Assembly (NCBI GenBank): GCA_020510985.1
Contig: CM035843.1
Location: 157,187,922 to 157,251,921, forward strand
DNA: 64,000 nt
Source: Pholidichthys leucotaenia
Taxonomy: Eukaryota
Direction: 5' to 3'
Position 1 is the first letter of the stretch. Each line of letters opens with the position of its first letter. A program made the translations under genes and the position numbers. Below are positions 36,261-61,584 of the stretch, one piece after another. Under the pieces are notes generated by a model that was not told where the DNA came from, searched no databases, and saw only the letters and a program-made list of their open reading frames with translations.

Positions 36261-39200
36261 GTGAGTTCTGAAGGTAATACGCTTTATTTGCGTAGAAATA
36301 GGCTTTAAGAATTAAAACTCTGCCTCTACTACTAATGACAATAACAGTGTCATTATGCACATAAAAAAACAGTATGTGGTCCTCGTGAAAACTGATTGGG
36401 GAATCCTGCTGAAGGGTCATAAATCCGCAGTTCTACTTGAAACCCAGCAGGTGGCAGCAGGTGTCCATATAAAAGGCTTCCGACCAGTAGACGTTGGCAG
36501 CTTTCAGCCATGCCACTTTCTCACAGGTTTTCCTTAAGAAGTGGGTAAAGTCGTGGGGCGGACAAGCACGGGGACCTCTATAGCCATGGTTCTGCTCCTC
36601 CTCTTTTTGGCATTTTTACTCTTCATGTTACTACAGTGCGAGATGACACAATCAAACACACTTTAAATATGGAGACATAGAAATGCTGCCAAGTTTCTGA
36701 GAAAAGTCACATTTATGTCATCAAAAAATTAATTCACCAAAATAAAAATAAAAAATCTTAGAAAAAAGTTGCAAATTTCAGAGAAAGGTTACAAACTTAA
36801 AAAAAACCCACTCATTTTGTTTAAAAAAGTCACAAATTTGAGGAAAAAAGGTGCAAGCTTGCAAAAGCTTAACAAGTTTAATGAAAAAAATCAAAAATTT
36901 ACTTGAAAAAGGGACTTCTGGTTATGGCGGCCACGTGAGAAGGACGCGTATCACTCTGCTCTGCTCCTAGAGAAAAAAAAATTGGCAAATGACTCTCTCA
37001 TTTGGGACAGAGCCTATCCCAGCGTTTGGGCGAGGATATGTCGGTGAAGCCTAAGGCTGGAAAATCAGGTAGAGGAAAAAGCGAACCGCCGAAACAGTCC
37101 AAATTAACGGACTTTCACGTCTGTGACACAGCAGATAAAGCTCCATATATGGCGGAGGAAGCTAGCAGCGGTGCGGTGACTGCGGGAAACGGCACAGGTG
37201 CAGTGCTTGCTGCTATTAGTTCAATGAGAGCAGACTTTTCCGCTAAATTTGATGGGATTATGGCAGCGTTGGAAGGAATGAGAAAAGAATTGGGTGACTG
37301 TGTAGAGCGAATGGTGCAGGTGGAGCTTCGTGTCTCCAGTGCTGAAGATGACGTCACCAGCCTTCAATTAAAGGTGCGCACTTTGGAAAAAAAAAAAAAA
37401 AAAATGTCTGGAAGATAATGTCTTGGAGTCCCGGTCGAGACAGAACAACTTGAGGCTGGTGGGTTTACCGGAGGGAACCGAGGGTCGGGACCCATGTTCC
37501 TTTTTGGAAAAGTGGATTCCGGAGGTGCTGGGCAGCGCGGAGCTGCAATCAACAGTTGTCCTAGAAAGTGCACACCGAATTGGCCCACCGAGAGATAAGG
37601 GACCACCGAGGATGCTTATTATGAAGTTCCTCAGCAACAGAGACAGGATGAAGATCTCCAACGCTGCGCGAGCGAAAGGAGGGATTAAACACCAGGACCA
37701 GCAGGTGCGGTTCTACCCAGATTTGGCCACAGGAATCCAACAATTGAGGAAGCAGTTTGACCCCGTACGAAAAGAGCTGCGCAACCTTGGGATTCGTCAT
37801 GGTGTAATTTATCCTGCGAGACTGTTGACCACGTATGGGGGCAGAACACACATCTTCAAGACCCCAGAGGAGGCGCAGGAGTTCATCAAGAAGATCCAAG
37901 AAGAGACTGGTGGGAGCTAAGCATGAACAAAATATAAGGTAGAATATTTAAGCATTTGCACAGGCATCTGACTGATTTGAAGCAAATAGCAAGTTTACAA
38001 AATATAGATTGTATTATATATTAAAAAAAAACAAAAAAAAACTATGATGTACAAAGTTGCTAAAAATTTTGGAGTTAAGTTGGAAAACTACAGAAGAGAG
38101 TTAATGTTACGTCATTAAAAGCAGTAGAGTTAGGGTGATTGGGAGGATGAAGAAAGAGTGGTTTTGGCTGAGCCTCGTGGGTGTGGAGCGGTCGATGGCT
38201 ATATCAGGAGACGGAATTTTTCTTTTGATTTTGGGGGGTTTGCCACAAATGTGGGAAGGGGGAATTTGTTTGTGTGTAGTTTGTAGGATGAATGTTCAAC
38301 CACTCATGTTTTTGCTTCTCTGTATGAGCATGTTTACACTGCAAGGTAATCCCAAACTCCCTATTGATCATAAACCAAAGCGTTAATCTTAATTTAACTT
38401 CATGGAATTGCAGAGGTCTACAAAATTTAAAAAACTTAAACAAGTTATGAATAAAATAAAAGACATAGGTTCAAAAATTGTGTTTTTACAAGAAACTCAT
38501 CTAATAGAGGAGGATGTAAAAAGAATTAGGAGTAGATGGCAAGGAAGTGTTTTCACCTCATCATTTTCATCCCGAGCCAGGGGAGTTATGATTCTCATAC
38601 ATAAATCAGTCCCATTTCAAGTGAAAAATGTAATTGGAGACAAATTTGGAAGATATTTAATCATTCAAGGATCTTTGCTATTAGAAAATATAAATCTGGT
38701 GAACTTATATGGTCCCAATATAGATGATCAAAAGTTCTTTGCTAATTTATTTCTTATCTTATCATCACTTACAGGGCAACATATAATAGCAGGGGATTTT
38801 AATTGTACATTGAATCCCGGTATAGATAGATCAACAGGACTGGACTGTACGCACAATGGATGTAGGATGATCATTAATCATTTTATGAAAGAATTGAGAT
38901 TGCTAGATATATGGAGAGAAATGAAACCACAAGTTAAAGCCTACTCTTGTTATTCTAATACCTACAAGACATTCTCACGTATTGATTATTTTTTGATCTC
39001 CACAGAATTAAGGTCCAAGATTCAAAACTGCTTTTATGATAACATTGTGATCTCTGATCATGCACCCTGCTGTCTAATACTGTATATGTAGATAAGAAAT
39101 TGACAAAGGAACCAGGCAGGTGGCAATTTCAGCATAAATGGCTTCAGGATGAGGAATTTGTTAAGTACATAGAAAAACAGATAGATGAGTTCTTTGATAT

Positions 39201-41356
39201 CAATACTACACAAACATCAGCATGTGTAAAGTGGGAGGCTTTCAAAGCTTTTATTAGGGGACATATTATTAGCTATACAGGTTCAAAATCTAAGAAGACT
39301 CGAGAGGAGAGAGTCCAATTGGAACATAAAATAAAAATTCTTCAAGAAAAAGTGTATGCAGGAAGTGATCCAAGGTTGGAGAACGAATTACTGATTTTGA
39401 GAGCTGAATATGACAAAAAATCAGCGACTAGAGCTGCCTCGAGTCTTCGAAGATTGAAACAATCTTTTTATGAACAAGGTGAAAAATCAGGGAAATTATT
39501 GGCATGGCAGGTTAAACAATTAGAATTTAAAACACCAATTACCAGTATTATAAGTAACGGACAGGTAGTTGTAGATCCTTTAGAAATTAATAGAGCCTTT
39601 AGAGATTACTATGAAAAATTATGATACCAAAAATGAATCTGACTTAACAAAACTAAATGGGTTTTTGAACGGACTATCTATACCGTGTATTACAAATGAA
39701 AACAGGGAGATACTGGAGTCTAAAATTAGTCAAGAAGAAGTTGGGCTAGCCATTGATAATATGAAATCAGGAAAAAGTGCAGGACCAGATGGTCTTCCAG
39801 TTGACCTTTATAAAAAATTTAAGAATAAATTAATCAAACCTTTTTTGGAAATGGTTTTAGAAGCATTTCAAAATAGTAATTTACCATCATACATGAATAA
39901 TGCCTTAATTATACTGTTGCCCAAACCAGGTAAACTCTCTAATAAATGTGAAAATATGAGACCAATAAGCCTATTAAATGCCGACGTTAAGATAATCTGT
40001 AAAATTTTAGCAAGACGAATACAAGAAATTTTACCAAATATTATTAATCGAGATCAGAATGGCTTTATAAAGGGAAGACAAGGCTTCCATAATGTAAGAA
40101 GACTATTTAATATTATTTATTCTAATAAAGAAGCATCGGATACCGCTCTCCTATCATTGGACGCCGAAAAGGCCTTTGATAGAGTCGAATGGCCCTTTCT
40201 TTTTGAAGTCTTACAAAGGTTTGGACTTGGAAATAATTGCATAAAATGGGTTCAGATAATATACAATAATGCTACAGCAGAAATCCTAACAAATAGCAAT
40301 ATTTCAAAATCAATAAAAATCAATAGAGGATGTTGACAAGGCTGTCCACTTTCACCTTTACTGTTTACTATGGCAATTGAACCTTTAGCGATGGTGGTAC
40401 GTTTACGTTCACAAATATATGGAATTAAAGTTGGACCAACAGAACATAAAATCTCCCTGTATGCCGATGACATAATATTGTTTATGTCGAATCTTAAAAA
40501 ATCAATTCCGACCTTGTTGAATTTAATAAAGAATTTTGGGGAAATATCAGGATATAAAATAAATAAAACTAAATCTTCAATATTAATGCTAAATGAGACC
40601 CAGAGAAATCACCCAGCTCCTGAGGTAAATCAATTCAGTGTTGTAAATCAGTTTAAATATTTAGGAATCCAAATTGTGCCTAAGCTAGAATCAGTCGCCA
40701 GTGTCAACTATGAAGCCATAATGACAGACATTAATGAGTTACTTCAGAGATGGATGTCACTACCAATGTCGATGATCGGGAGAATCAATATACTTAAAGG
40801 TAATATCTTACCTAAAATACTTTATTTATTTCAATACATTCCCTTACCACCACCTTTAGATCTATTCTCAAGAATTAAAAAAAAGTTAATTCAATTCAAT
40901 TCAATTCAACTTTATTTATATAGCGCCATTTCACAACAACAGTCATCTCATAGCACTATCAACTGTAGGGAGGACCCCCACAGTTGCAGAAAGACCCCAG
41001 CAATCAGGCGATCCCCTGTGAGCAAGCACTTGGCGACGGTGGAGAGGAAAAACTCCCTTTTAACAGGAAGAAACCTCCAGCAGAACCAGGCTCAGGGAGG
41101 GGCAGTCATCTGCTGCGACTGGCTGGGGGGTGAGGGGACAGAGAAGAAGAAAAGAACAGACATGTAGAGAGCAAACAGCACGATGGGGACTCAATCTATG
41201 GGAGAGAACAAACAAATGTTAATGACCAGCAAAAAAAAAATATTTCATAGAGAGTGAGGAAAGGAGTGAGGCCCAGTGCATTACTGAAGGTCCCCCGGCT
41301 GACTAAACCTATTAGCAGCATAACTAAGGGAGGGTTCAGAAACACATGATCCCTCC

Positions 41357-44300
41357 CTAATTGTAGGCTATATCAAAAAGGTAGGTTTTAGCCCTATTCT
41401 TAAAAACAGAGATCAAGTCTGACTCCCGAATCCAGATTGGCAGCTGATTCCACAGGAGAGGAGCTTGATAACTAAAGGCTCTGCCTCCCATTGTACTTTT
41501 GGAGATTCTAGGTATTACAAGTAAACCTGCATTTTGGGAGCGTAGTGCTCTGTTAGGATGATACGGTAGTATCAGATCTTTTAAATAAAAAGGAGCCTGA
41601 TTGTTTAGAGCTTTGTAAGTAAGAAGAAGGATTTTAAACTTAATTCTAAACTCTATGGGAAGCCAATGAAGGGAGGCCAGAACCGGAGAGATATGATCTC
41701 TCTTTCTAGTACCTGTTAAAACTCTTGCTGCAGCATTTTGGATCAGCTGAAGACTTTTTAAAGATGTTTTAGGACAGCCTGATAATAAAGAATTACAATA
41801 ATCTAATCTCGAGCTAACAAAAGCGTGGATCAGCTTCTCAGCATCACTCTGAGACAAGATGCTCCTAATCTTGGCAATATTACGCAAATGATAGAAGGCA
41901 GTCTTAGAAACAAATTTAATATGTGAATTGAAGGACAAATCCTGATCAAAAATAACTCCAAGGTTCCTCACAGAGCTATTAAGAGAAAGAGTAACTGCAT
42001 CCAAACTGAAAGTTTGATTTGGAAAGGAATTTCTAAGGTTTTTTGGACCAACAAGAATGACTTCAGTCTTATCTGAATTTAATAGCAGGAAATTACAAGT
42101 CATCCAAACTTTGATTTCCTTAAGACAGGCTTCTAACTTGGCTAATTGATTAGTATCATCTGGCTTCATTGACAGGTATAATTGTGTGTCATCTGCATAA
42201 CAGTGAAAATGTATACAGTGCTTTCTAATAATGTTGCCTAACGGAAGCATATATAAACTAAAAAGAGTAGGGCCAAGCACAGATCCCTGTGGAACTCCAT
42301 GACTAAGCTTTGAGCTGAGAGAAAACTCATCATTTACATGAACAAACTGGAACCTATCAGATAAATAAGATCTAAACCACTGCAACGAAGTTCCATTAAG
42401 TCCAACATAGTGTTCTAATCTATCAAGTAGAATATTATGATCAATAGTATCAAAAGCTGCACTAAGATCTAAAAGGACAAGTACAGAAACTAGTCCATTA
42501 TCAGATGCAATGAGGAGGTCGTTAGTGACCTTCGCTAAGGCTGTTTCAGTGCTATGATGGATTCTAAACCCAGATTGAAACTCCTCAAATAAACCATTTC
42601 CCTGCAGGTGGTCAAATAATTGCGTAGCAACAACTCTTTCTAAGATTTTTGAAATGAAAGGGAGATTAGAGATTGGTCTATAGTTAGCTAAATCTCCTGG
42701 ATCTAGCGTTGGCTTTTTGAGTAAGGGTTTAATTACAGCCGTTTTAAAAGCCTGCGGTACATGGCCTAAAGTTAATGAAGAATTGATTATATGAAGAATA
42801 AAGCTACCAATAAGTGGGAAGACTTCTTTAAATAACCTGGTAGGAATAGGGTCTAAAAGACAAGTTGAAGGTTTGGATGAGGAAACTATTTTGTCTAACT
42901 CACAAAGGTCGATTGGAGTAAACTCATCAAGACAGACATCAATAGAAGGAGTTGTAGTAGTTACAGTATTTAAGTTAACTGTGGGAAGAATCTGATTGAT
43001 TTTATCTCTGATGGATGAAATTTTATTATTGAAAAAGTTCATAAAGTCCTGACTAGTAAGCTCTAAGGGGATGCTAGGATTGACAGAGTCCTGACTCTTT
43101 GTCAACCTGGCTACAGTACTGAAAAGAAACCTGGGATTATTCTTGTTCTCTTCTATTAATGCAGAGTAATAACTCGTTCTAGCTTTTCTAAGAGATTTTT
43201 TATAAATTAAAAGATGATTTCTCCAAGCTAAATAGATTTCATCTAAATTAGTAGAGCGCCATTTTCTTTCTAATTGACGAGTCTTCTGTTTTAAGCTACG
43301 AGTTTCTGTGTTGAACCAAGGAGTTAAAAATCTCTGATTAGCCTTTTTCTTTTTTAAGGGGGCCACCAAGTCTAGAGCCTGATGCAGAGAAGCTGAAACA
43401 CTATCCACCATGTTATCAATTACAGAAGGAGCAAGCTGACTATAGCTTATTTCCGTTGTGTTGACACATGGCATAGAGGAAACAATCTGCATAAATTTGG
43501 AAACAGCATCATCTGAGAGGCATCTACTGTGATAATATTTTTCTTTAGGAGCCAAATAGTCAGAAATAGTAAAATCAAAGGTTAACAGACAATGGTCTGA
43601 CAGTACAGGGTTATGAGGAGACACTACAAGATTTTCTATTTCTATGCCATATGTCAGAACAAGGTCCAATGTATGGTGGAGGTAATGAGTAGAATTTCCT
43701 ACTTTCTGAGAAAACCCAATCGAGTCTAATATTGAATTAAAAGCCACATTAAGGCAGTCACTATCTACATCCACATGTATATTAAAGTCCCCTACTATAA
43801 TTATTCTATCAGATTTCAGCACTAAATCAGCTAAGAAATCAGGAAATTCGGATAAAAATTCTGAATAGGTTGATGGGGGACGATAAACTATGGCAAATAA
43901 AATTGGGTTTAACCTGGAATTGCTAAAGTGCCCAACACTGAGGACCAGGCCCTCAAAGGAATTATAACATGTTTTTTGCTTTACATTAACTAGTAATTTG
44001 GAATGGTAAATTGTTGCTACTCCTCCTCCACGACCAGAACTTCTGGGATTTTGACAGTTTAAATAACCAGAGGGAGTTGATTCATTTAAACCAACATAAT
44101 CCTCTTGTCCTAACCAAGTCTCTGTAAGGGAAATTAAATCAATCTGATGATCAATTAACAGATCATGGACTAACAGAGACTTGGGAGTTAGAGACCTAAT
44201 ATTTAATAAACCACATTTAATTTTTAAATTATGAGGAGGAACAGAGGCCAAATCATTCAATTTAGAGGCTTTATGTTTAATTTGAGTTTTACCAATATTT

Positions 44301-44362
44301 TGCTTTATCACTTTGGGATGCTTATACATTATATTTTTATTTACTTTGGAGGGAGCAGACAA
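41357..44362 (-). CDS. L2 ORF2 (apurinic-endonuclease-like plus reverse transcriptase), 1001 aa, uninterrupted.
   Basis: Single long ORF. Shows APE motifs (LNIRSL...SLTETWL), the RT motif FDTIDHNIL, and YADDTQLY. Confidence 0.85.
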
Positions 44363-44473
44363 CGATTCTCTGATGGGGAAGACAGGGGCTAAGCTGAGGG
44401 GTGGCGGATGAAGAGGAGCTGCAGAGAGGCGTGTAAGACTGAGACTCTGCTTCCTGGTCCCAACTCTGAGTAG

Positions 44474-45352
44474 TTATGGTTTTGGAAATTTGGATAAAAA
44501 AGATGCCAGATTGTTAGATAAATGAGAAGCACCATTCAAAGTGGGATGAATGCTGTCTCGTCTCATAAGACCAGGTTTTCCCCAAAAAGAGCTCCAATTG
44601 TCAATGTAGCCCACGTCATTTTTAGGACACCACACAGACAGCCAGCGGTTCAAGGATGACGAGCGACTAAACATGTCATCACTGGTCAGATTGGGGAGGG
44701 GTCCAGAGAATACTACAGTGGCAGACATCGTTTTGGCAAAGTCACACACCGATTCTATATTAAGTTTCGTGACTTCCGACTGCCGGAGACGGATGTCATT
44801 AATGCCGGCGTGAATAACAATTGTGGAATATTTACAGTTACTTTTAGCCAGCATTTTCAAATTTGACTCGATGTCGCCTGCTCTGGCCCCAGGAATGCAT
44901 GTGACTATGGCCGATGGAGTCTCTAGGTTCACGTTTCTGACTACAGAGTCGCCAATGATCAGAGTTTTTTCCTCAGCGGGTGTGTCGCTGAGCGGGGAAA
45001 AACGATTAGAAACGTGAACAGGTTGGTGGTGAACCGGGGCTTTGCGACTAGGCTTCCTTCTCACCGTCACCCACCCAGTCTCCTCGCTGCTGAGGAGAGC
45101 CGGGGAACCACTGACAGGGGGGCCTAAGCTAGCTAGCTCCGCTGCAGCTAATGGGCGTCCGTCGAGATTAACTGGCGCAGACGGTGTTTCAATGCAGCGG
45201 AGCCGGGATTCCAAATCAGACAACCTCGCCTCGAGCGCCTCAAAAAGACAACATTTATTACATTTACCGTTATCACTAAAAGAGGCAGAGGTGTAGCTAA
45301 ACATCTGACAGAGAGAGCACACCAGAGGAGAGGAAAGAGAGGTAGTAGCCAT
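44474..45352 (-). CDS. L2 ORF1 with a C-x2-C zinc knuckle, a coiled coil and an SGNH-hydrolase (esterase) domain, 292 aa.
   Basis: Motifs [13 protein letters not shown] ... HAGINDIR ... DSIHPT. Esterase-type ORF1 is known from CR1 and L2 LINEs. Confidence 0.75.
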
Positions 45353-47278
45353 AGCTAGTGGCTAGAGAGCTGGAGAGCAAACCACACAGGCAGACAGCAA
45401 AACAGGAAGTGACGATACGTTACCACAAGGAAGTGACGATCACAATTCCTACCACAATTCCAAGTTAGTGGAATTTATATGGAACAACAGGAGGGCTAGA
45501 TTACGTCTGTCCTTATTATATTTACCATTTGATCGTGGAGGTCTGAAATGTCCAAACTTTATGTTGTATTATTGGTCGGCGCAACTGAGGTCTATGACAT
45601 ATTATTTTTCATCAAATGATCTCCCTCACTGGACGGAGATGGAATCATACAATTTACCTTTACCTCTTCCCATATTCATATACTCAGATTCGGCAAAAAA
45701 ATTACAAAAACAAGTTAAAAATCCATTTGTAAAGCATATGATCAAAATATGGTGTGAAACTAAAAACTATTTAAAAGAACCACACTTATTGTCACAATTT
45801 AGCCCAATATGGGGTAATCAATATTTTAAACCAGGGAGAGCGGATGCTGTATTTAAAGTATGGAATTTAAAAGGGATTCAAAAGAGTCAAGATTTATATC
45901 TGTCACGTTCAGATAACATAATGTCTTTTGAAGAGCTGAGGATCAAATTTAATCTTAATAGAACACATTTTTTTTAAATATCTTCAACTTCGGAACTTTA
46001 TTCGATCAAATCAAAATAAAGCTCTCACTCGACCTATTTATTCATCCTTGGAAAAAATGTTGATGAAAGATAGTAAAAGAAAGGGTATTATTTCAGAGTT
46101 TTATAACTCATTGACACTATCCTCAAGTGAAAACTCACAGAAAAGATTAAACTACTGGAAAGAAGATCTGCAAACTGAAATTTCAGAGGAACAATGGGAA
46201 TTGGCTTGTACAGAAGCTCAAACCAAATCAATAAATGTACGTCTTAAATTGATACATTTTAAATGGTTAATGCGGATGTATGTTACACCAGTGGAGTTAA
46301 ATAGATATAACAAAAACATACCAGATACATGCACAAAATGCATGGAAAGTAAAGGAACCCTATTTCATTGTGTATGGGAATGTAGAATAATTAGAGTGTT
46401 TTGGGAAGAGGTGAGGGTAACAATTGAAAAAATAATTTCAAAACAAATCATATTGAATCCTAAACTGTTTTTGTTGGGTCTGTACCCAGAAAAGCATAAC
46501 TTTAATAAAAGTGAAAGAACATTCATAGACCTCAGTTTGCTTAATGCCAAAAAATGTATTGCACTACTGTGGAAAAAGACTCATAGACCAGATGTGACTC
46601 AGTGGTTAAGACAGATGTTAATAAACCTTCCACTAGAAAGAATAACATACATACTGAAATCAAAGGAAACTGTGTTTGAGAATATATGGAGACCTTTTAT
46701 TGATTATGTAAAGAATTTAAACATAACTTTTGAAGAAGAAGGTGAATGATGTGTGTGGACCTTGTAAATTCCAAACTGGTGAATATAATATGTATACTTA
46801 TGTAATGGATTGCCTAGACTAAACAGAGGAGCATTGTTGAAGACTTGATTTTGTTGGTGGTTGTTGGTGTTTTTAGTGTATTTTTTTTTTTGTAGTACTT
46901 TAGTGTTAGTGTTTGTTTGTGTCATGTTTGTTAAAAAAAAAGGTTCAATAAAGATATTGTGGAAAAAAAAATTTACTTGAAAAAGTCACATACTACTGAA
47001 AAAAATTACAAGCTTCACCCCCCCCCCCCCCGCCCCGATCCCAAAGTAATATTGGATATTAAACTTGGTGGGCACTCATGCCATGAACGACTTTTGCAAG
47101 GACTGATATTGGATGGAGTCTCTCATTGGCCTAGCATCTCTGCTACTTTGCTGCTGCTAGCTTCTGTGTGGACTCCAGCATGTAAGTTCACCTGCTGCCA
47201 TCTTTGCGTGGACCCTGGCCTGTGACTTCATCACCTCTTCTTTAGTGAGCTTTACTTCATTGTGGCCCTGAGTGTCTA

Positions 47279-48950
47279 ATGGCCTTTGTAGTGTCTGGAA
47301 AAAAGACAGAAACTACAGCTGTTTGTGAGAGCTGCATCTTGGCTTTCACTATACTGGAGGATAAATTACATCACCTGGAGATGAAAATCAGGGACAAGGA
47401 CAAGCAGATTGATAACTTTTTATCAATTTCAGTATTCCAGAGTAAGCATATTTCATATATGCAAGCCTCCGTGGTTGCTCCACTAGTCCTGTCACCTTCC
47501 TCTCAGCTGTTTCAGGCTCAAGTTTCTGACAATGCCACAACTATTCCATGGCTAGCACCAATCAGCCCTGGAGTGTCTTCCTGAAGAATGTCTGGCTGCT
47601 GTAGTGGACAATTCACCCAAAGAGTGTGGACCTGTGGCCATACGGGCCAGCATTACCACTCCAGCAGAGGCCGCAGAATATCCCAATCCTACTTTCTCCA
47701 TACATGTTTTCACCCAACCTGATGCCAACTGGGGACTATTGGGAGCAAGGCCCAAGGCCCCTGTTAATACCGTCACTCCAAATCAGATTAATTTCCAGGC
47801 ACAATTGTCCTGGTCTGCTGTGGTCCGAGGTGGAAGGTATCATCCAGGTGAAGCAGCTCAACAATCTTGCCTTGAGCTTCACAACCAGTACGCACTCCTT
47901 CCCAACGATGGTGCAGCCCACCCTTCTGAAGCTACTAAAAAATAATTACATATCCTTTGAAAGCCTCACACTCTGCCTCTCTCATCCATCTGGCCGTTAC
48001 TCAGAATTTTTGTCTGAACTCTGAATTTCTGTCTGTTAGTGCTCAATACTGACAAATTATTATAGCTGGTGACTTCAGTATCCATATCAATGTTCATAGT
48101 GACAGTCTCAATACTGCATTTAATTCCTTATTAGAATCCATAAATTTCTGTCAGATGGTAACAAAACCCACTTACTGTCATAATCACATACTTGACCTTG
48201 TCTTGACTTATGGCATTGAGATAGAAAAATTGGTGATATTGCCTCATAACCCTCTTTTGTCTGATCGATCATTAATAACATTTGGCATTATGATCAATGG
48301 CTTTACAGAATTGCATAAAAATATCCAGTACTGCAGGTTTCTTTCAGTGCTGTGGTAAGGTCTAAGGAATTACTATCCCCATTGGTCTCTACATGCTTTA
48401 CCTCTGTTAATGAAAACTTTTGAAACTTTACTCCCTTTCAGATAGATTGTTTGGTTGACAGTGTTGCAGCCACTTTACGAGCGACTCTTGATAATATTGC
48501 CCCACTACAGAGAAAATTGTGCTCAGATTAGGTTCACACCCTGGTACAATGATCAATTGTGTGCCTTAAAACAAACTTCTAAGAAACTGGAAAGGAAATG
48601 GCGTGCCATTAAATCAAGAGAATGCTTTTTAGCCTGGAAAAGTTCTTTTATTTCGTACAAAAATGCCATACACAGAGTTAGAACTAGATACTATTCACTG
48701 CTAACTGAAGAGAATAAAAACAACCCCAAATTCCTTTTTAAGATGCTTGTCAGACTGACTAAGAGTCACAGTATTGTTGAACAACATATTCCCTCATCAC
48801 TGAGCTGCAATGACTTCATGAACTTCTTCACTAACAAGGTTGTAGTCATTAGAGAAAAGATTAGTCTTTCTCATCCCAATATCAGTACCACGCTCTTTTC
48901 TGATGATCTGACTGCGGAAATGTCAAAGCTAAGCTAGACTCTTATTACCT
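47279..48950 (+). mobile_element. Older L2-clade LINE copy, 5' portion (ORF1-like 47279-47940, APE C-terminus 48060-48360, RT N-terminus 48455-48937). An internal deletion has removed the esterase domain and the APE N-terminus. Further pieces of what is probably the same copy lie at about 52900-54140 and 55550-56110.
   Basis: Protein colinear with the young L2 ([16 protein letters not shown] matches [14 protein letters not shown]; [16 protein letters not shown] matches the same motif). Multiple frameshifts. Confidence 0.6.
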
Positions 48951-49189
48951 CCGCCAAGGAGGTTATGTTTTTACCGGGGTTTGTTTGTCTGTTTGTTTGT
49001 TTGTTTGTCTGTTACCAACATAACTCAAAAAGTTATGAATGCATTTTGACGAAATTTTCAGGACAAGTCCGAAATGGGACAAGGAAGAAATGATTAGATT
49101 TTGGGAGTGATCCGGATCACCATCTGGATCCAGGAATCTTTTTAAAGGATTCTTTATCATTGCGAGATAGGGCCATTTTTAGTATATAT

Positions 49190-50770
49190 GTACAGTGGGG
49201 CAAAAAAGTATTTAGTCGGCCACCAATTGTGCAAGTTCTCCCACTTAAAAGATGAGAGAGATCTCCAATTTTCATCATAGGTATACCTCAACTATGAGAG
49301 ACAAAATGAGAAAAAAAAAATCCAGAAAATCACATTGAAGGATTTTTAATGAATTAATTGGTAAATTCCTCAGTAAAATAAGTATTTGGTCACCTACAAA
49401 CAAGCAAGATTTCTGGCTCTCACAGACCTGTAACTACTTCTTTAAGAGGCTCCTCTGTCCTCCACTCGTTGCCTGTATTAATGGCACCTGTTTGAACTCG
49501 TTATCAGTATAAAAGACACCTGTCCACAACCTCAAACAGTCAGACTCTAAACTCCACTATGGCCAAGACCAAAGAGCTGTCAAAGGACACCAGAAACAAA
49601 ATTGTAGACCTGCACCAGGCTGGGAAGACTGAATCTGCAATAGGTAAGCAGCTTGGTGTGAAGAAATCAACTGTGGGAGCAATTATTAGAAAATGGAAGA
49701 CATACAAGACCATTGATAATGTCCCTCCATCTGGGGCTCCACGCAAGATCTCACCCCGTGGGGTCAAAATTATCACGGGAACGGTGAACAAAAATCCCAG
49801 AACCACATGGGGGGACCTAGTGAATGACCTGCAGAGAGCTGGGACCAAAGTAACAAAGGCTACATCAGAAACACACTACACCGCCAGGGACTCAAATCGT
49901 GCAGTGCCAGACGTGTCCCCCTGCTTAAGCCAGTACATGTCCAGGCGTGTCTGAAGTTTGCTAGAGAGCATTTGGATGATCCAGAAGAGGATTGGGAGAA
50001 TGTCATATGGTCAGATGAAACCATAATAGAACTTTGTGTTAAAAACTCAACTTGTCATGTTTGGAGGAGAAAGAGCACCATACCTACTATGAAGCATGGG
50101 GGTGGAAACATCATACTTTGGGACTGTTTTTCTGCAAAGGGACCAGGACGACTGATCCGTGTAAAGGAAAGAATGAATGGGGCCATGTATCGTGAGATTT
50201 TGAGTGAAAACCTCCTTCCACCAGCAAGGGCATTGAAGATGAAACGTGGCTGGGTCTTTCAGCATGACAATGATCCCAAACATACCACCCGGGCAACGAA
50301 GGAGTGGCTTCGTAAGAAGCATTTGAAGGTCCTGGAGTGGCCTAGCCAGTCTCCAGATCTCAACCCCATAGAAAATCTTTGGAGGGAGTTGAAAGTCTGT
50401 GTTGCCCAGCGACAGCCCCAAAACATCACTGCTCTAGAGGAGATCTGCATGGAGGAATGGGCCAAAATACCAGCAACAGTGTGTGAAAACATACAGAAAA
50501 CATTTGACCTCTGTCATTGCCAACAAAGGGTATATAACAAAGTATTGAGATGAAGTTTTTTTATTGACCAAATACTTATTTTACCGAGGAATTTACCAAT
50601 TAATTCATTAAAAATCCTTCAATGTGATTTTCTGGATTTTTTTTTTCCTATTTTGTCTCTCATAGTTGAGGTATACCTATGATGAAAATTGGAGACCTCT
50701 CTCATCTTTTAAGTGGGAGAACTTGCACAATTGGTGGCTGACTAAATACTTTTTTACCCCACTGTATATA
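49190..50770 (+). mobile_element. Tc1-like DNA transposon, copy A. Transposase ORFs 49559-49954 and 49972-50553 (one frameshift). TIRs of about 210 bp.
   Basis: TIR TACAGTGGGGCAAAAAAGTATTTAGTCGGCCACCAATTGTGCAAGTTCTCCCACTTAAAAGATGAGAG... at 49190-49400 and the reverse complement at 50560-50770. TA flanks both ends. Confidence 0.9.
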
Positions 50771-51171
50771 ACTCCACAATAAATGGTCAGGACGCTTGCC
50801 AAAAAAATACAGGATAAGATCCCAGTAGGTTCTACGAAATATCAAAGACTGATCCCGATCCTGCAAAAAATCCAGATACTGTGATCCAGAACAGGAAATA
50901 ATAGGGGATCTTTGGGATTTTCATCACTGTAAGGTAACAAATTAAGATATAAACATACAACAAACACCACAATATAGCCAAGACAATGAGGAATCTGTAG
51001 TGTGCCAATGGATTTGTTGTATCATCAAAAGCTATGGAGCTACTGTATATCCAGAAGAAAACCGCCATTACCGAAAAAGTGATTTTTCTTAATAACTACT
51101 GAACTAATAAAGATATCAATGTGAATCCAATTGCTAAAGGTATGTTTTGATGGTCAAGGAATCTGAAAATA

Positions 51172-52755
51172 TACAGTGGGGCAAAAAAGTATTTAGTCAG
51201 TCACCAATTGTGCAAGTTCTCCCACTTAAAAGATGAGAGAGGTCTCCAATTTTCATCATCGGTATACCTCAACTATGAGAGACAAAATGAGAAAAAAAAA
51301 TCCAGAAAATCACATTGAAGGATTTTTAATGAATTAATTGGTAAATTCCTCGGTAAAATAAGTATTTGGTCAATAACAAAAGTTCATCTCAGTACTTTGT
51401 TATATACCCTTTGTTGGCAATGACAGAGGTCAAACATTTTCTGTAAGTCTTCACAAGGTTTCACACACTGTTGCTGGTATTTTGGCCCATTCCTCTATGC
51501 AGATCTCCTCTAGAGCATTGATGTTTTGGGGCTGTCACTGGGCAACACGGACTTTCAACTCCCTCCAAAGATTTTCTATGGGGTTGAGATCTGGAGACTG
51601 GCTAGGCCACTCCAGGACCTTGAAATACTTCTTACAAAGCCACTCCTTCGTTGCCCGGGCAGTGTGTTTGGGATCATTGTCATGCTGAAAGACCCAGCCA
51701 CGTTTCATCTTCAATGCCTTTGCTGATGGAAGGAGGTTTTCACTCAAAATCTCACGATACATGGCCCCATTCATTCTTTCCTTTACACGGATCAGTCGTC
51801 CTGGTCCCTTTGCAGAAAAACAGCCCCAAAGTATGATGTTTCCACACCCATGCTTCACATGTGTGTGGAAAGGTGTTCCTTTTCCTCCAAACACGACAAG
51901 TTGATTTTTTACCAAAAAGTTCTATTTTGGTTTCATCTGACCATATGACATTCTCCCAATCCTCTTCTGGATCATCCAAATGCTCTCTAGCAAACTTCAG
52001 ACAGGCCTGGTCATGTACTGGCTTAAGCAGGGGGACACGTCTGGAACTGCAGGATTTGAGTCCCTGGCGGCGTAGTGTGTTACTGATGTAGCCTTTGTTA
52101 CTTTGGTCCCAGCTCTCTGCAGGTCATTCACTAGGTCCCCCCATGTGGTTCTGGGATTTTTGCTCACCGTTCTCGTGATCATTTTGACCCCACGGGGTGA
52201 GATCTTGCGTGGAGCCCCAGATCGAGGGAGATTATCAGTAGTTTTGTATGTCTTCCATTTTCTAATAATTGCTCCCACAGTTGATTTCTTCACACCAAGC
52301 TGCTTACCTATTGCAGATTCAGTCTTCCCAGCCTGGTGCAGGTCTACAATTTTGTTTCTGGTGTCCTTTGACAGGTCGTTGGTCTTGGCCATAGTGGAGT
52401 TTGGAGTCTGACTGTTTGAGGTTGGACAGGTGTCTTTTATACTGATAACGAGTTCAAGCAGGTGCCATTAATACAGGTAACGAGTGGAGGACAGAGGAGC
52501 CTCTTAAAGAAGAAGTTACAGGTCTGTGAGAACCAGAAATCTTGCTTGTTTGTAGGTGACCAAATACTTATTTTACTGAGGAATTTACCAATTTTCATTA
52601 AAAATCCTTCAATGTGATTTTCTGGATTTTTTTTCTCATTTTGTCTGTCATAGTTGAGGTATACCTATGATGAAAATTGGAGACCTCTCTCATCTTTTAA
52701 GTGGGAGAACTTGCACAATTGGTGGCTGACTAAATACTTTTTTACCCCACTGTAG
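51172..52755 (-). mobile_element. Tc1-like DNA transposon, copy B. Same family as copy A and about 97% identical, but on the opposite strand. Its 3' end faces copy A across a 400-bp spacer.
   Basis: Transposase ORFs 51997-52392, 51752-51979 and 51535-51915 on the minus strand. The TIRs are identical in type to copy A. The frameshift position is shared with copy A. Confidence 0.9.
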
Positions 52756-52839
52756 ATAAAATAAATGTAGGACTATTATATTTGGGGAAAATCCCAATAT
52801 TGGGGGGAACTGAGGTATTTGGCAGAGGTCTGCGCTCTC

Positions 52840-52910
52840 CGAGCACTTTTCTAGTTCGCGACCCAAAAAAGATTAAGCGGAAGAAGATGGATGGATGGAT
52901 GGATGGTCTG
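52840..52910 (+). mobile_element. SINE 3'-tail fragment (...GATTAAGCGGAAGAAGATGGATGGATGGATGG).
   Basis: Matches the tails of the SINEs at 19266 and 53770, in the opposite orientation. Confidence 0.5.
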
Positions 52911-53769
52911 CTTGAGTTGATGCCCATTATCACTGTCTCTAAACCATCTACAAGTTTGTTGGATCCCATTCCTACAAGACTGTTTAAGGATATTCTGCCC
53001 CTTATTAACACCGCTGTACTTGATCTGATTAATCTTTCTCTACTAACTGGTTATGTACCTCATGCCTTTAAGTTGGCCATAATTAAACCATTGCTTAAAA
53101 AGTCTACTCTTGATCCCGATGTTTGAGCTAATTATAGGACCAAAGTTACAAATGACCTCCTTATTGCCTCTGACAATGGACTTGTCTCTGTGCTCATCCT
53201 GTTAGATCTGAGTGCTGCATTTGACACCATCGACCATACAGTTTTGCTACATAGACTTGGAACACATCATTGGGATCAAGGGAGCTTTTTTGGCCTGGTT
53301 TAAATCATTTCTCAGATAGATTCCAGTTTGTACATGTAAATATACAAATTTCTCAACTTAGTTATTGTGTTCCTCAGGGTTCTGGTCTTGGACCAGTTTT
53401 GTTTACCTTAAATATATACTTCCACTGGGCACTATTATCAGAAAACATTATATGAATTTTCACTGCTATGCCAGTAACACACAGATCTATTTAGCCATGG
53501 ACACTAAATACACTCATCAGTTAGTGAAATTACAGGCATGCCTTGAAGGCATAAAGGCCTGGATGACTGGTAACTTCCTTATGCTAAATTCAAGCGAAAC
53601 TAAGGTAATTGTTTTCGGCCCTAAAAAAGTCAAAGATTCCCTGTCTAACCATATAGTTACACTGGATGGCTTTACTTGGCATCCAGTACTACTGTGAGGA
53701 ATCTTGGAGTAATTTTTGACCACGACTTGTCTTTTAATTCACACATAAAACAGATGTATAGAGCTGCTT

Positions 53770-53890
53770 TCTTTCATCCATCGCCATCTTCTTCCGCTTA
53801 ATCCTTTTCGGGTCGCGGGGGGGCTGGAGCCTATCCCAGCATCTTAAGGCGAGAGGCAGGGTACACCCTGGACAGATCGCCAGTCCATCT
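53770..53890 (-). mobile_element. SINE 3'-half fragment inserted in the old L2 RT region.
   Basis: CCATCTTCTTCCGCTTAATCCTTTTCGGGTCGCGGGGGGGCTGGAGCCTATCCCAGCATCTTAAGGCGAGAGGCAGGGTACACCCTGGACAGATCGCCAGTCCATC. Confidence 0.7.
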
Positions 53891-56800
53891 GCGCAATATT
53901 GCAGAAATCAGGAGCATCCTGTCTCAAACTGGCGCTGAAAAATTGGTCCATGTATTTGTTGCATCTAGGCTAGACTACTGCAATGCACTGTTGGCTGGAT
54001 GTCCAAACAATTCCCTCAAAATTCTTCAATGGATTCAAAATGCTGCTGCCAGAGTACTGACAGGTGCTACCAAGAGGTCACATTTCTCCTATCCTATCAT
54101 CTCTACATTGGCTCCCCATTAAATCTAGAATAGAATTTAACCTCTTGCACTCCGGGATACCGCGGGCGGTCACGTCTCTGCATTCTAGTGCGTCCTCGTG
54201 CATCTCAGTGCGCACTGAAAAAAAAAAAAGGCAGCATTTCCGTTCTTCCACTACAGACACAGCCGCGAACAGAAAGCCAATGGAGTGCTTTGATTGGTTT
54301 AGATTTGATTGACCTCTCATTTGACTAATAAGAGCCTTGAATTGGGTTTCTGAAACCTTGAAGAACAAATGACTGAAAACCTAGCAAGAAGGACCCGCCT
54401 ACCAACGACTGCGAATACAATGAGCCAATTGAAGCAGAGAAGTTCGACGATTGAAAGTGTGCGCCCCGTGCATAAAATCTGTTTTGTGTAAGCTGCTGTG
54501 TGTAATGGTAGCGTTTGCCAGCCTTTTTTTATTACTACTGTTCTTATTTGTTTTGAAAAATCGTTCGCCAAAACCGCAATCAATCATGGAAGCGCAAAAC
54601 CGCAATCATGGAATCATGGTTTGACCGGGTCGCGTGACCAGAACCACGAGTCGTAACAAGCGGACCAGCGTCATGTTCGTCTGACAATGAGGAACAGATG
54701 TTCGCCAGCGACACTGCTGTTGTGGACAGGTAAGTGTTATAAGCTAAATTATTCTTTATCCCTGAAAATAGTAATAAAAATGACTTTTGACCGATCGGTA
54801 AATTACAACTGTGCGTCATCGCCACATGATGGACCGCGGCACACGGTCCAGTCCGTGCTTCTCTGTAGCGGGGGGGGGGGGGAGTTGTTATCCTCTTCAT
54901 TGCAGATATTTTAGTATAATTTTTATTGCACTGTAGGTTATTTTTTCTTGTAAAAAAAGGCCACACATTTTTTACGTGGCATGCTTCTTTGTGTGTGGGG
55001 AGGCTTGTTTGTTCATTCATTCATTCATGAATGAATAAACAACCTCCCACACACACACACACACAGCCCTGAGTGTCACCTTTCATTAGAGCCCAAGATG
55101 AAGCTTCTATATTGAATCATTCAAAAGTTATAGACGTTTTTCCAAACTGTGCCATTTGGCACAATTTGGCACAGTTCAAAAATGCCTGGGAACAACCTGA
55201 GAAGAAAGCTGTGTAATATATTCATTTTTTGTGGTATTGTTACAAAATTTTGACCTCAGCTGGACAACACTTGGTTCTACATTTCTGTTGCATTTTCCAG
55301 CCAGTATCTGACAGCTGTGTGTTATTTGCAAGCATTTGTATCTAAAAAAAAAACACCCAAGCAAACTTTATTTTCTTCAAGTTCAGTATGTTTAGATGAC
55401 TGTTACTCAGTGGCAGGAGCACTTAGAGAGATTATGACTGTTTTGCCAAAAAATTCAAAGTGTTTTCTTTTAAATGAGACCAACCCCATGAAGATGCTGC
55501 AAAGGGTTGAAGAACAGCTTTTGATTTACTTTGGGTATGTTATTTTTAGGTGTTTTTAGGGAAATTGACCAGAGTGCAACTGGTTAAAATCCTCCTCATT
55601 ACTTATAAAGCCCTCAGCATCCAAGCCCCTTCTGACCTTAAAGACCTTATTTTTCCATATTACCCTTCAAGACCTTTTCGCTCTCAGAATGCAGGCTTAG
55701 TTGTGGTTCCCAGATTTTTCAAAAGTAAATTTGGAGGCAGAGCCTTCAGTTATCAGACCACTCTCCTATGGAACCAGCTCCCTGCCTGGGTACGGGATGC
55801 TGATACTATCTCTTCTTTTAAAATCAAGTTTCAACTTTTCTTTTTGATCGAGCTTACAATTAGCTTTATTGTTATTATTAGTTATGTTGTTATTGTTATT
55901 TTCACTGATTTCCAAGTCGTGGTATTTTGACTCTGACTTTGACTGTTTTATTGTGATTTTATTATCTTATAGTTGTTTTAATCAGTTCCTTTCTTCATAT
56001 TTTTGAATATTTTAACCTCTTACCTTTTTTGTGTTTTTATGTGTTTCTGTTTGACTATGGTTCTGTGAAGCACCTTGGGTTGCATGTGTCCTTGAGAGGT
56101 GCTATATGAATAAAGTGAACTGAACTGAAGGACAATGGCAAGTTTTTAAGATGGAGTGTGGAGCACTGTGAATGGGTGCACCTGTGTGTAATACGGTGAA
56201 ACTGGGGGCAAGTGTATGCAGTATGAAAGAAGTGGTCATGTATGAGCTACTAAAATGCAGATAAAATGGAGGGGGGCACCCCACTGCATCGGGCAGCATA
56301 GGTTCCTTCCACATCCAACCCAAACCCTCACTGTCTACAACGCAATTAAGAGAGGACCCCTCCTCACGGACTCCCCACGCCACAACCCTAAATATATGAG
56401 ATGGGATGTGTAGTCCACCTAGCACAGCCAGCTCTGTAAACTGGGTCCAGAACCCATCCCCACTCCCTAAATCCTGGCCAAGGATGAAGGGCACCAGGGC
56501 CCGCCGCTGCCACATCCCAGAGCACTGCCAGCACCATGGGGCAGTGACCATCCTTCCCAGCCCCAGGGCACTAGATGTGCAGGCCCACCCAAGACCCTGC
56601 CAGTCCCCATTTCCCCAGCAGTCAAACTCCCAGACATAACGACGCGCTCACCCATACAGATACACACAATCATACCTGGTCTACCCCAGAACACGCCCAG
56701 GGAGGAACGGGCCCAGCCTGGTTAAGAACAGACCTTTTTTTCTTTTTTCCCCTCCTATCTTGAATGGTGGAAGCTGTTGTGTGACATGCCTGAATCAGTG

Positions 56801-59149: not shown

Positions 59150-59620
59150 TGCTCATTGCAAGAAATATCATACTCTCACAAATTTAGCATAAGGTAGAAA
59201 TATATAAATGTAAATTAGGTACAAATTTGCAAGAATAAAGGTGCAAAGATGTGATAAAAGATGTCATTTTAAGTTATTTTACAAGAAGAAATTGTATTTT
59301 GATGAGGAAAAAAGTTGCAAATTTGAGAAAAAAGTAGTAAATTTAGAAGAAAAAAGTTGCAATTTTATGAGAAAAAAGTTGCAAATTTGCAAGAAAAAAT
59401 TGCTATTTCAGGAAAAAGTTGCAAATTTGAGAAAGTTGCAATTTTCTGAGGGGAAAAAGCTGCAAGTTTACAAGAAAAAAAGTTGCAAATTTAGAAAAAG
59501 TGGCAAATGTACAAGAAAAAATTGCAATTTGACAAGGAGAAAAGTAGCAAATTTGACAAAAAAGTTTCATTTTTCTGAGAAAAAAAAAAGCTGCAAATTT
59601 ACCAGAAAAAAATAATTCAT
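59150..59620 (+). repeat. Composite element copy. Head at 59170-59290, then a VNTR array at 59290-59620.
   Basis: Head CTCACAAATTTAGCATAAGGTAGAAATATATAAATGTAAATTAGGTACAAATTTGCAAGAATAAAGGTGCAAAG, followed by GTTGCAAATTT units. Confidence 0.75.
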
Positions 59621-60152: not shown

Positions 60153-60594
60153 GTGAGTCTGATTGGAGTTCTGCACTTTGAAAGTAAAATTGAACTCAGC
60201 AAATATTTGATTAATAGATTCTCCCTATTTTCATACTGCGCACAGAACACAAAGTTTAGTGTGGTGTAAATTTAATTCTGCTTTTTAAAATGTTATAATT
60301 TGTGCACATTAATTAATTTTTCAACAGAAAAAAATAAACTGTTATATAGAATAAAAATATGTAACCAGTTTATATGACTGTTAATTTTTTGGGGGGGGGA
60401 AAAGTCAAACATTTATAAGAAAAAGTTGCAAATTGATCGTAGAAGAAGATTCCAAATTTACAGAAAAACACAAATATGAGAAAAATGGGAATGGGGATTT
60501 CAGGGGATCGTCACTTCCTTGTGGTAACGTATCGTCACTTCCTGTTTTGCTGTCTGCCTGTGTGGTTTGCTCTCCAGCTCTCTAGCCACTAGCT

Positions 60595-61473
60595 ATGGCT
60601 ACTACCTCTCTTTCCTCTCCTCTGGTGTGCTCTCTCTGTCAGATGTTTAGCTACACCTCTGCCTCTTTTAGTGATAACGGTAAATGTAATAAATGTTGTC
60701 TTTTTGAGGCGCTCGAGGCGAGGTTGTCTGATTTGGAATCCCGGCTCCGCTGCATTGAAACACCGTCTGCGCCAGTTAATCTCGACGGACGCCCATTAGC
60801 TGCAGCGGAGCTAGCTAGCTTAGGCCCCCCTGTCAGTGGTTCCCCGGCTCTCCTCAGCAGCGAGGAGACTGGGTGGGTGACGGTGAGAAGGAAGCCTAGT
60901 CGCAAAGCCCCGGTACACCACCAACCTGTTCACGTTTCTAATCGTTTTTCCCCGCTCAGCGACACACCCACTGAGGAAAAAACTCTGATCATTGGCGACT
61001 CTGTAGTCAGAAACGTGAACCTAGAGACTCCAGCGGTCATAGTCCAATGTATTCCTGGGGCCAGAGCAGGCGACATCGAGTCAAATTTGAAAATGCTGGC
61101 TAAAAGTAACTGTAAATATTCCACAATTGTTATTCACGCCGGCATTAATGGCATCCGTCTCCGGCAGTCGGAAGTCACGAAACTTAATATAGAATCGGTG
61201 TGTGACTTTGCAAAAACGATGTCTGCCACTGTAGTATTCTCTGGGCCCCTCCCCAATCTGACCAGTGATGACATGTTTAGTCGCTCGTCATCCTTGAACC
61301 GCTGGCTGTCTGTGTGGTGTCCTAAAAATGACGTGGGCTACATTGACAATTGGAGCTCTTTTTGGGGAAAACCTGGTCTTATGAGACGAGACAGCATTCA
61401 TCCCACTTTGGATGGTGCTTCTCATTTATCTAACAATCTGGCATCTTTTTTATCCAAATTTCCAAAACCATAA
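60595..61473 (+). CDS. L2 ORF1 (zinc knuckle, coiled coil and SGNH esterase), 292 aa.
   Basis: Differs from the 44474-45352 copy at only about 6 residues. Confidence 0.8.
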
Positions 61474-61584
61474 CTACTCAGAGTTGGGACCAGGAAGCAG
61501 AGTCTCAGTCTTACACGCCTCTCTGCAGCTCCTCTTCATCCGCCACCCCTCAGCTTAGCCCCTGTCTTCCCCATCAGAGAATCG

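Follow-up and report, generated by a model that had tools for sequence, protein, structure and literature searches.

Two recent insertions of an L2-clade LINE with an esterase ORF1 in Pholidichthys leucotaenia, and the in-frame junction between its open reading frames

A reading of 64,000 nucleotides (nt) of Pholidichthys leucotaenia DNA (assembly GCA_020510985.1, contig CM035843.1, positions 157,187,922 to 157,251,921 of the forward strand; hereafter the window), made from the sequence alone, suggested that it contains two nearly identical long interspersed nuclear elements (LINEs) of the L2 clade. By self-comparison we indeed found two such elements at the places indicated: a complete one on the minus strand, copy A, and one on the plus strand, copy B, which runs off the window end; its last ~196 codons of open reading frame (ORF) 2, its 3' untranslated region (UTR), its 3' flank and its target-site duplication (TSD) lie beyond position 64000. 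From its 3' tail to the 5' end that it has in common with copy B, copy A covers 40889-45441 (4553 nt). This is the position given by the sequence-only reading; the true extent of the insertion is 40889-45461, since 20 extra nt precede the TSD. The two copies and the insertion site are composed as follows.

40889-45461, minus strand: copy A, complete L2 insertion of 4573 nt, the 20 extra 5'-junction nt counted in (self-BLAST, junction sequences, host ORF regained on removal)
45442-45461, minus strand: the 20 nt at the 5' junction, not in copy B, GGAATTGTGGTAGGAATTGT (junction sequences of both copies)
45353-45441, minus strand: 5' UTR, 89 nt, same sequence in copy B
44477-45352 (to 44474 including the stop), minus strand: ORF1, 292 amino acids (aa), with C4 finger (45251-45319), coiled-coil helix (45188-45259), disordered basic linker and SGNH esterase (44495-44965)
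44474-44476, minus strand: sole stop between ORF1 and ORF2, TAA then CTA, the ORFs being in one frame (frame translation)
44330-44473, minus strand: spacer of 48 open codons in the ORF1/ORF2 frame, from the ORF1 stop to the first ATG (frame translation)
41357-44329, minus strand: ORF2 from the first ATG, 990 aa, with APE endonuclease (~43592-44206) and reverse transcriptase (~41951-42709); SDH and YADD motifs present
40960-40986, minus strand: second, upstream 11-bp hairpin in the 3' UTR (folding of the 3' UTR)
40909-40957, minus strand: 3'-terminal stem-loop (40922-40957), then GCGCTATATAAATAAAGT (folding z = -5; cross-locus alignment)
40889-40908, minus strand: 3' tail (TGAAT)x4, without poly(A); L007, L008 and the ZfL2-1-like locus L004 finish with this repeat too
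40883-40888, no strand: TSD AAGTTA, left copy, beside the 3' tail of the element (junction sequence)
45462-45467, no strand: TSD AAGTTA, right copy; in the host frame, left and right copy alike are read as AAG TTA (junction sequence)
38402-46749 (38402-40888 and 45462-46749), plus strand: host LINE of another type, with endonuclease and reverse transcriptase, interrupted by copy A (domain matches, excision test)
60506-64000, plus strand: copy B, cut by the window end; 5' UTR 60506-60594, ORF1 60595-61473 (TAA at 61471-61473), ORF2 frame open over 61474-64000

The two copies can be compared over 3495 nt (45441 to 41947 in copy A, 60506-64000 in copy B). Over this length the alignment is gapless and the identity is 98.999% (99.0%); the near-identity had thus been recognised correctly, but not its value, which had been put at about 98%. 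The 35 mismatches consist of 24 transitions and 11 transversions, and none of them falls in the first 409 nt (45033-45441 in copy A), a part that includes the 89-nt 5' UTR, said earlier to be identical in the two copies. All ORFs are full-length and intact in copy A, and those of copy B are intact as far as the window reaches, without a stop over 805 codons of ORF2, in agreement with the uninterrupted frames reported before. The proteins differ at 6 of 292 residues in ORF1 and at 13 of 805 in ORF2. ORF2 of copy A had been listed at 44362 to 41357 with 1001 aa; the frame is open, for 1038 codons counted from the ORF1 stop, but this start is the first TTG chosen by the ORF program and the first ATG gives 990 aa. 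At the extreme 5' end of the element, within the 5' UTR, the 13-nt direct repeat ATCGTCACTTCCT is present at 45428-45440 and 45404-45416 (minus strand); its ACTTCC core resembles an ETS-type site and may be a putative part of an internal promoter. Immediately 5' of copy B we observed a lysine-rich low-complexity repeat (ORF with KKL..KSCKF.. units) at 59241-59615 and up to 60505.

We examined the insertion site of copy A. Deleting 40889-45467 in silico, which removes one of the two AAGTTA, fused the host frame into an unbroken ORF of 342 codons, reading ...SRIKKKLVEFIWNNRRARL..., which approaches an empty site as nearly as a single window allows. In addition, the similarity of copies A and B stops at the same element base (GATCGTCACTTCC...) and the sequences upstream of it are unrelated. 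This precise 5' end of the similarity, the TSD and the restored host ORF together argue for retrotransposition and not for segmental duplication. TSD lengths peak at 3-5 bp for L2 and are roughly 5 bp for ZfL2-1, and zebrafish L2 inserts often have 5' extra nucleotides, as about half of the ZfL2-2 inserts do (PMC4245944). The 6-bp TSD of copy A fits these lengths, and 5' extra nucleotides at its junction would fit the zebrafish inserts; GGAATTGTGGTAGGAATTGT represents either such nucleotides or a part by which copy B is 20 nt shorter. These 20 nt (45442-45461) hold GGAATTGT twice, and TTGTGGTA is common to them and to element positions 14-21, a hint that the template was switched at the 5' end.

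ORF1 was then compared with known domains. A Pfam profile search, the check proposed with the sequence-only reading, detected Lipase_GDSL_2 in copy A (1.2e-8, above the cut-off); copy B, which carries D186G, scored just under the cut-off (31.1 vs 32.9), and neither RRM nor zf-CCHC was matched in ORF1 by Pfam. The best solved relative is PDB 4c1b (E=2e-29, residues 131-286), which also came first when the ORF1 model was searched with Foldseek, followed by GDSL lipases and PAF acetylhydrolase; 4c1b is the esterase domain of zebrafish ZfL2-1 ORF1p, as identified by Schneider et al. (PMC3905857). In an alignment with 19 homologues (21 by another count), S136 (IIGDS), G155, N185 (GIND) and D266 and H269 (DSIH) are invariant columns, and the SGNH catalytic blocks I (GDS), II (G), III (GxND) and V (DxxH) are all present. 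The assignment of ORF1 to the SGNH esterases made from the sequence is thus borne out by profile, structure and catalytic residues. Many homologues have GSS instead of GDS in block I, the serine being invariant; the window family keeps GDS.

The AlphaFold (AF2) model of ORF1, with a mean predicted local distance difference test score (pLDDT) of 64, shows four parts: a small N-terminal module (pLDDT about 70-77), a helix (32-55), a disordered segment (59-125) which holds a basic 10-residue motif, and an alpha/beta domain (130-286). A zinc knuckle and a coiled coil had been proposed for this protein. The coiled coil stands, as the helix predicted at residues 32-55. The CCHC knuckle has to be replaced by a C4 finger, given that C12, C15, C31 and C34 are conserved in the alignment with the spacing C-x2-C-x15-C-x2-C, a 13-residue stretch coming directly after them. 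This is the known "type IV" esterase ORF1p, with an N-terminal zinc finger and a coiled coil predicted to bind metal and to oligomerise. It had been called an unusual ORF1 type, which is no longer the case: in vertebrate CR1/L2 lineages no ORF1 type other than the esterase one can be identified, and it is found in most teleost L2s (PMC13343379). Esterase activity and binding of acidic phospholipids are known for ZfL2-1 only (PMC3905857).

ORF2 matched Exo_endo_phos (1.3e-12) and RVT_1 (9e-34) in Pfam and nothing else, RNase H included. Its similarity to L1 and R2 structures is limited to the reverse transcriptase core (E about 1e-8). It aligns end to end, with 53% identity, with P0186, the ORF2 protein of locus L004; the ORF1 esterase of L004 is ~80% identical to that of ZfL2-1 and has the same C-terminus. 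Full-length teleost proteins are the nearest to ORF2; those of percomorphs are 66-70% identical, those of cyprinids, characins and catfishes ~53-55%.

The 3' UTR of copy A contains two hairpins (z = -5) and ends in GGCGCTATATAAATAAAGT(TGAAT)4. The terminal motif, found twice in the window where 0.2 would be expected, is present together with the tail in L004, L007, L008, L002 and L014 as well. Pairing of the 3' stem is kept in L004, L007, L008, L014 and the old copy in the window described below, with compensatory changes in 4 of 12 pairs; a search of Rfam with the element at E<=1 gave no family match, a UnaL2 3'-element model being expected among the families. With its predicted stem-loop and short tandem repeats, this 3' end is of the stringent L2 type. 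ZfL2-1 is itself an L2-clade LINE of the stringent type (PMC4176376), and young teleost elements named "CR1" are really L2, no genuine young canonical CR1 being present in most teleosts (PMC13343379). We place the family in the L2 clade because of the ORF2 similarity, the 3' end and this published view, which agrees with the clade proposed earlier: ORF2 is intact and, from its APE endonuclease and reverse transcriptase, its end-to-end alignment with the ZfL2-1-like protein and the 3' end, is predicted to be of L2 type.

We consider it highly probable that copies A and B were inserted independently and recently, by retrotransposition, and that both represent one autonomous L2-clade LINE family, which belongs to the esterase-ORF1 "clade A" teleost lineage including ZfL2-1. 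What the sequence itself shows is how the copies are built, what they are homologous to, how copy A was inserted and the signal of selection described below. The biochemical steps and a continuing activity of the lineage would follow from homology with ZfL2-1 and UnaL2. The short 5' UTR would drive a full-length RNA; ORF1p would form multimers via its coiled coil, with the lipid-binding SGNH esterase and the basic linker aboard; the tail-binding region of ORF2p would grip the conserved 3' stem-loop; the APE endonuclease would nick the target and the (TGAAT)n tail would prime reverse transcription. The expected outcome would be short TSDs, often with extra nucleotides at the 5' junction.

In both copies ORF1 and ORF2 are in the same frame and separated by one stop, the stop and spacer covering 44330-44476 in copy A and 61471-61617 in copy B. 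Related loci were gathered from assemblies and metagenomes (L001-L040), and every locus with both the ORF1 C-terminus and the ORF2 N-terminus was scored, which gave 26 including copy A; 18 (copy A and 17 outside loci) were tabulated in detail. We observed that ORF2 lies in the ORF1 frame with exactly one stop in 22 of the 26 loci, copy A counted. The spacers from the stop to the endonuclease range from 61 to 305 codons, and in the 18 tabulated loci their 1576 codons hold no in-frame stop, against 106 and 153 stops in the other two frames; 12 of these 18 loci have no in-frame ATG before the endonuclease domain. Such stop-free in-frame spacers indicate rather clearly that the spacer would be translated in the ORF1 frame. 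This single-stop junction is kept in elements down to about 35-45% ORF1 identity, despite the several-fold range of spacer length. Among the four exceptions three look decayed and one, L005, is intact. In L005 (2947-3001; ORF2 50% identical) ORF2 is in an overlapping +1 frame, and at least one sublineage therefore couples the ORFs differently. In L003 (1627-2540) the spacer of ~305 codons consists of proline-rich tandem repeats and is still stop-free in frame.

The stop context was also compared. In the 17 outside loci the stop is TGA in every case, followed by C at +4 in 15 and by CAA or CTA in 12. UGA-CUA and UAG-CAA are viral readthrough signals (PMC13517186), which the contexts of the outside loci bring to mind. 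Gammaretroviral gag-pol and alphavirus nsP3/nsP4 likewise have a single in-frame stop before the polymerase, a C at +4 (UGA CUA or UGA CAA-like) and a downstream RNA stem; they are unrelated elements, and here the stem has 6 bp with weak covariation and readthrough is predicted from sequence alone. This stem, which begins 23 nt past the stop, recurs in most loci; two of its pairs covary (covariation term -0.24, which is weak), and RNAalifold detected no other stem in the 90 nt after the stop. The pN/pS of the spacer (the nonsynonymous over the synonymous proportion of differences) is 0.44-1.17, that is, without clear constraint on the peptide, which fits a loosely constrained linker.

The frame, the avoidance of stops and the stop context make up the case for readthrough, which is the simplest and our preferred reading of the junction, termination with nearby reinitiation being possible. 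We tentatively propose that in the teleost esterase-ORF1 L2 lineage, ZfL2-1-like elements included, ORF2p may be made as an ORF1p-ORF2p fusion by programmed stop readthrough, at UGA-C in the relatives and at UAA-C here. A restart near the ORF1 stop, as in human L1 and SART1, or initiation at the internal AUG at 44329, with the shared frame merely inherited, is a possibility that we take seriously without thinking it probable. The mechanism has been described for SART1 (PMC3708506), the window family does have an in-frame ATG 48 codons past the stop, and the mobility of ZfL2-1 depends only slightly on ORF1p (PMC3905857; PMC13343379). The overlapping frame of the intact L005 and the spacer pN/pS point the same way. 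By contrast, a restart would not require the common frame of 22 loci with such different spacers, nor the lack of stops in that frame only; it sits poorly with the 12 loci that offer no ATG before the endonuclease domain and with the virus-like UGA-C contexts. In the searchable literature, including papers on ZfL2-1, the CR1 group and recoding, we found no statement on the ORF1/ORF2 frame relation in L2 and no description of gag-pol-like readthrough for any LINE, though earlier descriptions are possible.

To return to the age and activity of the two insertions, the differences between copies A and B were analysed by the method of Nei and Gojobori. There are 15 synonymous and 20 nonsynonymous differences (pN/pS = 0.39), where 78% nonsynonymous would be expected under neutrality (binomial p = 0.006). 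The differences are unevenly spread: their absence from the first 409 nt has a permutation p = 0.013, and five substitutions are clustered in 18 nt of ORF1 (44897-44914; S147A, A148V, T151Q, C152C; p = 0.0007). The pattern in these two regions (44897-44914 and 45033-45441) may mean that the source elements were mosaics or recombinants. Only 2 of the 35 differences are at CpG sites and 2 of 130 CpG positions differ, too few sites to date the copies by CpG decay. The pN/pS and the uneven, CpG-poor differences point to part of the divergence having arisen among replicating sources and not by decay after insertion; the copies were probably made from slightly different source elements under selection, as is expected of an active lineage. 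A pN/pS of 0.39 fits a lineage that replicated recently. The neutral rate is about 3-5e-9 per site per year, an assumed value. At this rate the total divergence of 1% bounds the summed ages of the two copies at roughly 2-3 million years. The recent activity proposed in the sequence-only reading is thus supported by the pN/pS, the 99.0% identity, the open ORFs and the insertion signature of copy A.

Some observations weigh against our reading. The family is known from two copies only, within the 64-kb window; its closest database proteins are only 66-70% identical; the stop is TAA in both window copies as against TGA in 21 related loci; and in copy B the near-invariant GxND block is altered by D186G, at a position kept in at least 90% of homologues. 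It could be, accordingly, that the insertions are young and yet the lineage, or these copies, are no longer mobile, the open ORFs reflecting too little time for decay. At a divergence of ~0.5% for each copy the ORFs would be expected to stay open in the absence of selection too; besides the substitution in the copy B esterase and the TAA at the junction in place of the TGA typical of the lineage, the motif IETVSVPR, kept in relatives, has diverged here. We nevertheless hold a loss of mobility to be unlikely: a pN/pS of 0.39 means that the sources were under selection almost up to the time of insertion, no fewer than two insertions carry the TAA variant, and the esterase is dispensable for ZfL2-1 mobility in cultured cells (PMC3905857; PMC13343379).

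That the copies are alike through segmental duplication, named with the sequence-only reading as what would speak against it, or through gene conversion is very improbable: the high identity, the unchanged first 409 nt and an uneven spread that could represent conversion tracts would suit it, but in both copies the similarity goes no further than the element's first base, with unrelated sequence upstream, copy A has a TSD in a host ORF that becomes continuous on its removal, no second copy of the host-LINE flanks is present in the 64-kb window, and the copies, ~15 kb apart, are on opposite strands; segmental duplication is rejected on account of the unrelated flanks and the AAGTTA duplication.

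The family was then compared with known elements. A collection of 5.8 billion sequences gave as closest proteins relatives with 66-70% identity over both full ORFs, and an exact ORF1 protein match was not found in public assemblies; as no relative exceeds 70% identity, the lineage is distinct at the family level. Percomorph teleost L2s (often CR1 or Maui in Repbase; type IVB ORF1) provide these best matches and have in common with the window family the C-x2-C-x15-C-x2-C finger, the LEARLSELEARLR helix and the esterase blocks; the ORF1 subtype with zinc finger/leucine zipper and esterase (IVB) was described by Metcalfe & Casane. The window family has diverged from the percomorph elements in its post-stop motif and in the IETVSVPR motif. 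Some protein matches (P0019, P0235, P0029 and others) stand out: a caecilian (Rhinatrema) ORF1, found amid teleost matches, is ~65% identical, which could reflect horizontal transfer or contamination, and a "Vibrio parahaemolyticus" reverse transcriptase and "Mustela" names look like fish DNA contaminating other assemblies.

ZfL2-1 of Danio rerio, which is retrotransposition-competent (PDB 4c1a/4c1b), has the same two ORFs, with coiled coil, basic linker and SGNH esterase in ORF1p and endonuclease and reverse transcriptase in ORF2, and also short TSDs. Its ORF1 is ~38-47% identical and the ORF2 identity is 53% (measured against L004), and the element is 5.0 kb long instead of 4.55 kb here. The ZfL2-1-like L004 shares a 3' end made of stem-loop, GCTATA(T/C)AAATAAA and (TGAAT)n, and its ORFs are parted by one stop; the stop context is TGA-CTA-G in L004 but TAA-CTA in the window copies. 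A C4 finger is conserved at the N-terminus in the window family, whereas the published scheme of ZfL2-1 ORF1p shows coiled coil, arginine-rich motif and esterase, the two being compared by scheme only (PMC3905857).

More distant systems are informative as well. UnaL2 of eel has another tail repeat and is devoid of ORF1. In UnaL2 and other stringent L2 LINEs a 3' stem-loop with short tail repeats is recognised by ORF2p (PMC4176376), and a conserved stem-loop is present here. Chicken and other amniote CR1 belong to the CR1 group, with an esterase ORF1 in some members and short TSDs; they form a different superfamily, and canonical young CR1 is absent from most teleosts (PMC13343379). Human LINE-1, likewise autonomous and bicistronic, combines a coiled-coil ORF1p with an ORF2p that has endonuclease and reverse transcriptase; the reverse transcriptase here matches structures of this ORF2p with E about 1e-8. 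The LINE-1 ORF1p has RRM and C-terminal domains and no esterase, and LINE-1 ORF2 is translated by termination-reinitiation. LINE-1 differs further by TSDs of ~15 bp (PMC4245944) and by a poly(A) tail with relaxed 3' recognition (PMC4176376).

The window is dense in transposons and contains further L2 sequences, on the plus strand.

47267-48886, plus strand: old L2, piece 1; weak ORF1 finger/coiled-coil remnant at 47267-47467 (weak profile match), ORF2 aa 186-463 at 48053-48886
52908-54147, plus strand: old L2, piece 2; ORF2 aa 486-912, with frameshifts
55584-56132, plus strand: old L2, piece 3; ORF2 C-terminus (aa 910-995 at 55586-55843), 3' UTR and tail GTGCTATATGAATAAAGTGAACTGAACTGAA
26750-26941, plus strand: isolated L2 ORF2 C-terminal fragment of 64 codons; aa 930-993, 49% identity

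The three old pieces are colinear, with 42-64% protein and ~70% DNA identity to the copy A family (tblastn, blastn), and are one old L2 split by two later insertions. The first, of ~4 kb (48887-52907), contains a DDE_3 (Tc1/mariner-like) transposase fragment (ORF 49972-50553), and the second, of ~1.4 kb, covers 54148-55583. These pieces had been described as older copies of the same family, showing its long persistence. The pieces exist, three of the four intervals listed being one element, but ~70% DNA identity rules out the same family and they represent a different, older L2 family or subfamily; L2s with this type of tail have long been present in the genome. Other LINE remnants are an ORF of 654 aa with reverse transcriptase and, on the minus strand, an element with endonuclease, reverse transcriptase and zf-RVT (7405-9369, 12281-15922).

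The family described here is an ordinary young case of a known kind, the L2-clade LINE with an esterase ORF1. Young L2s of this type are the usual state in teleost genomes, and the structure of their ORF1p is already solved. Copies A and B nevertheless provide a clean full-length reference for a family without a database relative above 70% identity, and they are candidate active elements in the source species. The architecture of the junction, if undescribed, is potentially weightier than the two copies themselves. If it is true, readthrough would set the ORF1p:ORF2p ratio and hold the polymerase in cis with the esterase/coiled-coil module. The translation of ORF2 is understood for very few LINEs, and a clade using readthrough would add to them a retrovirus-like solution.

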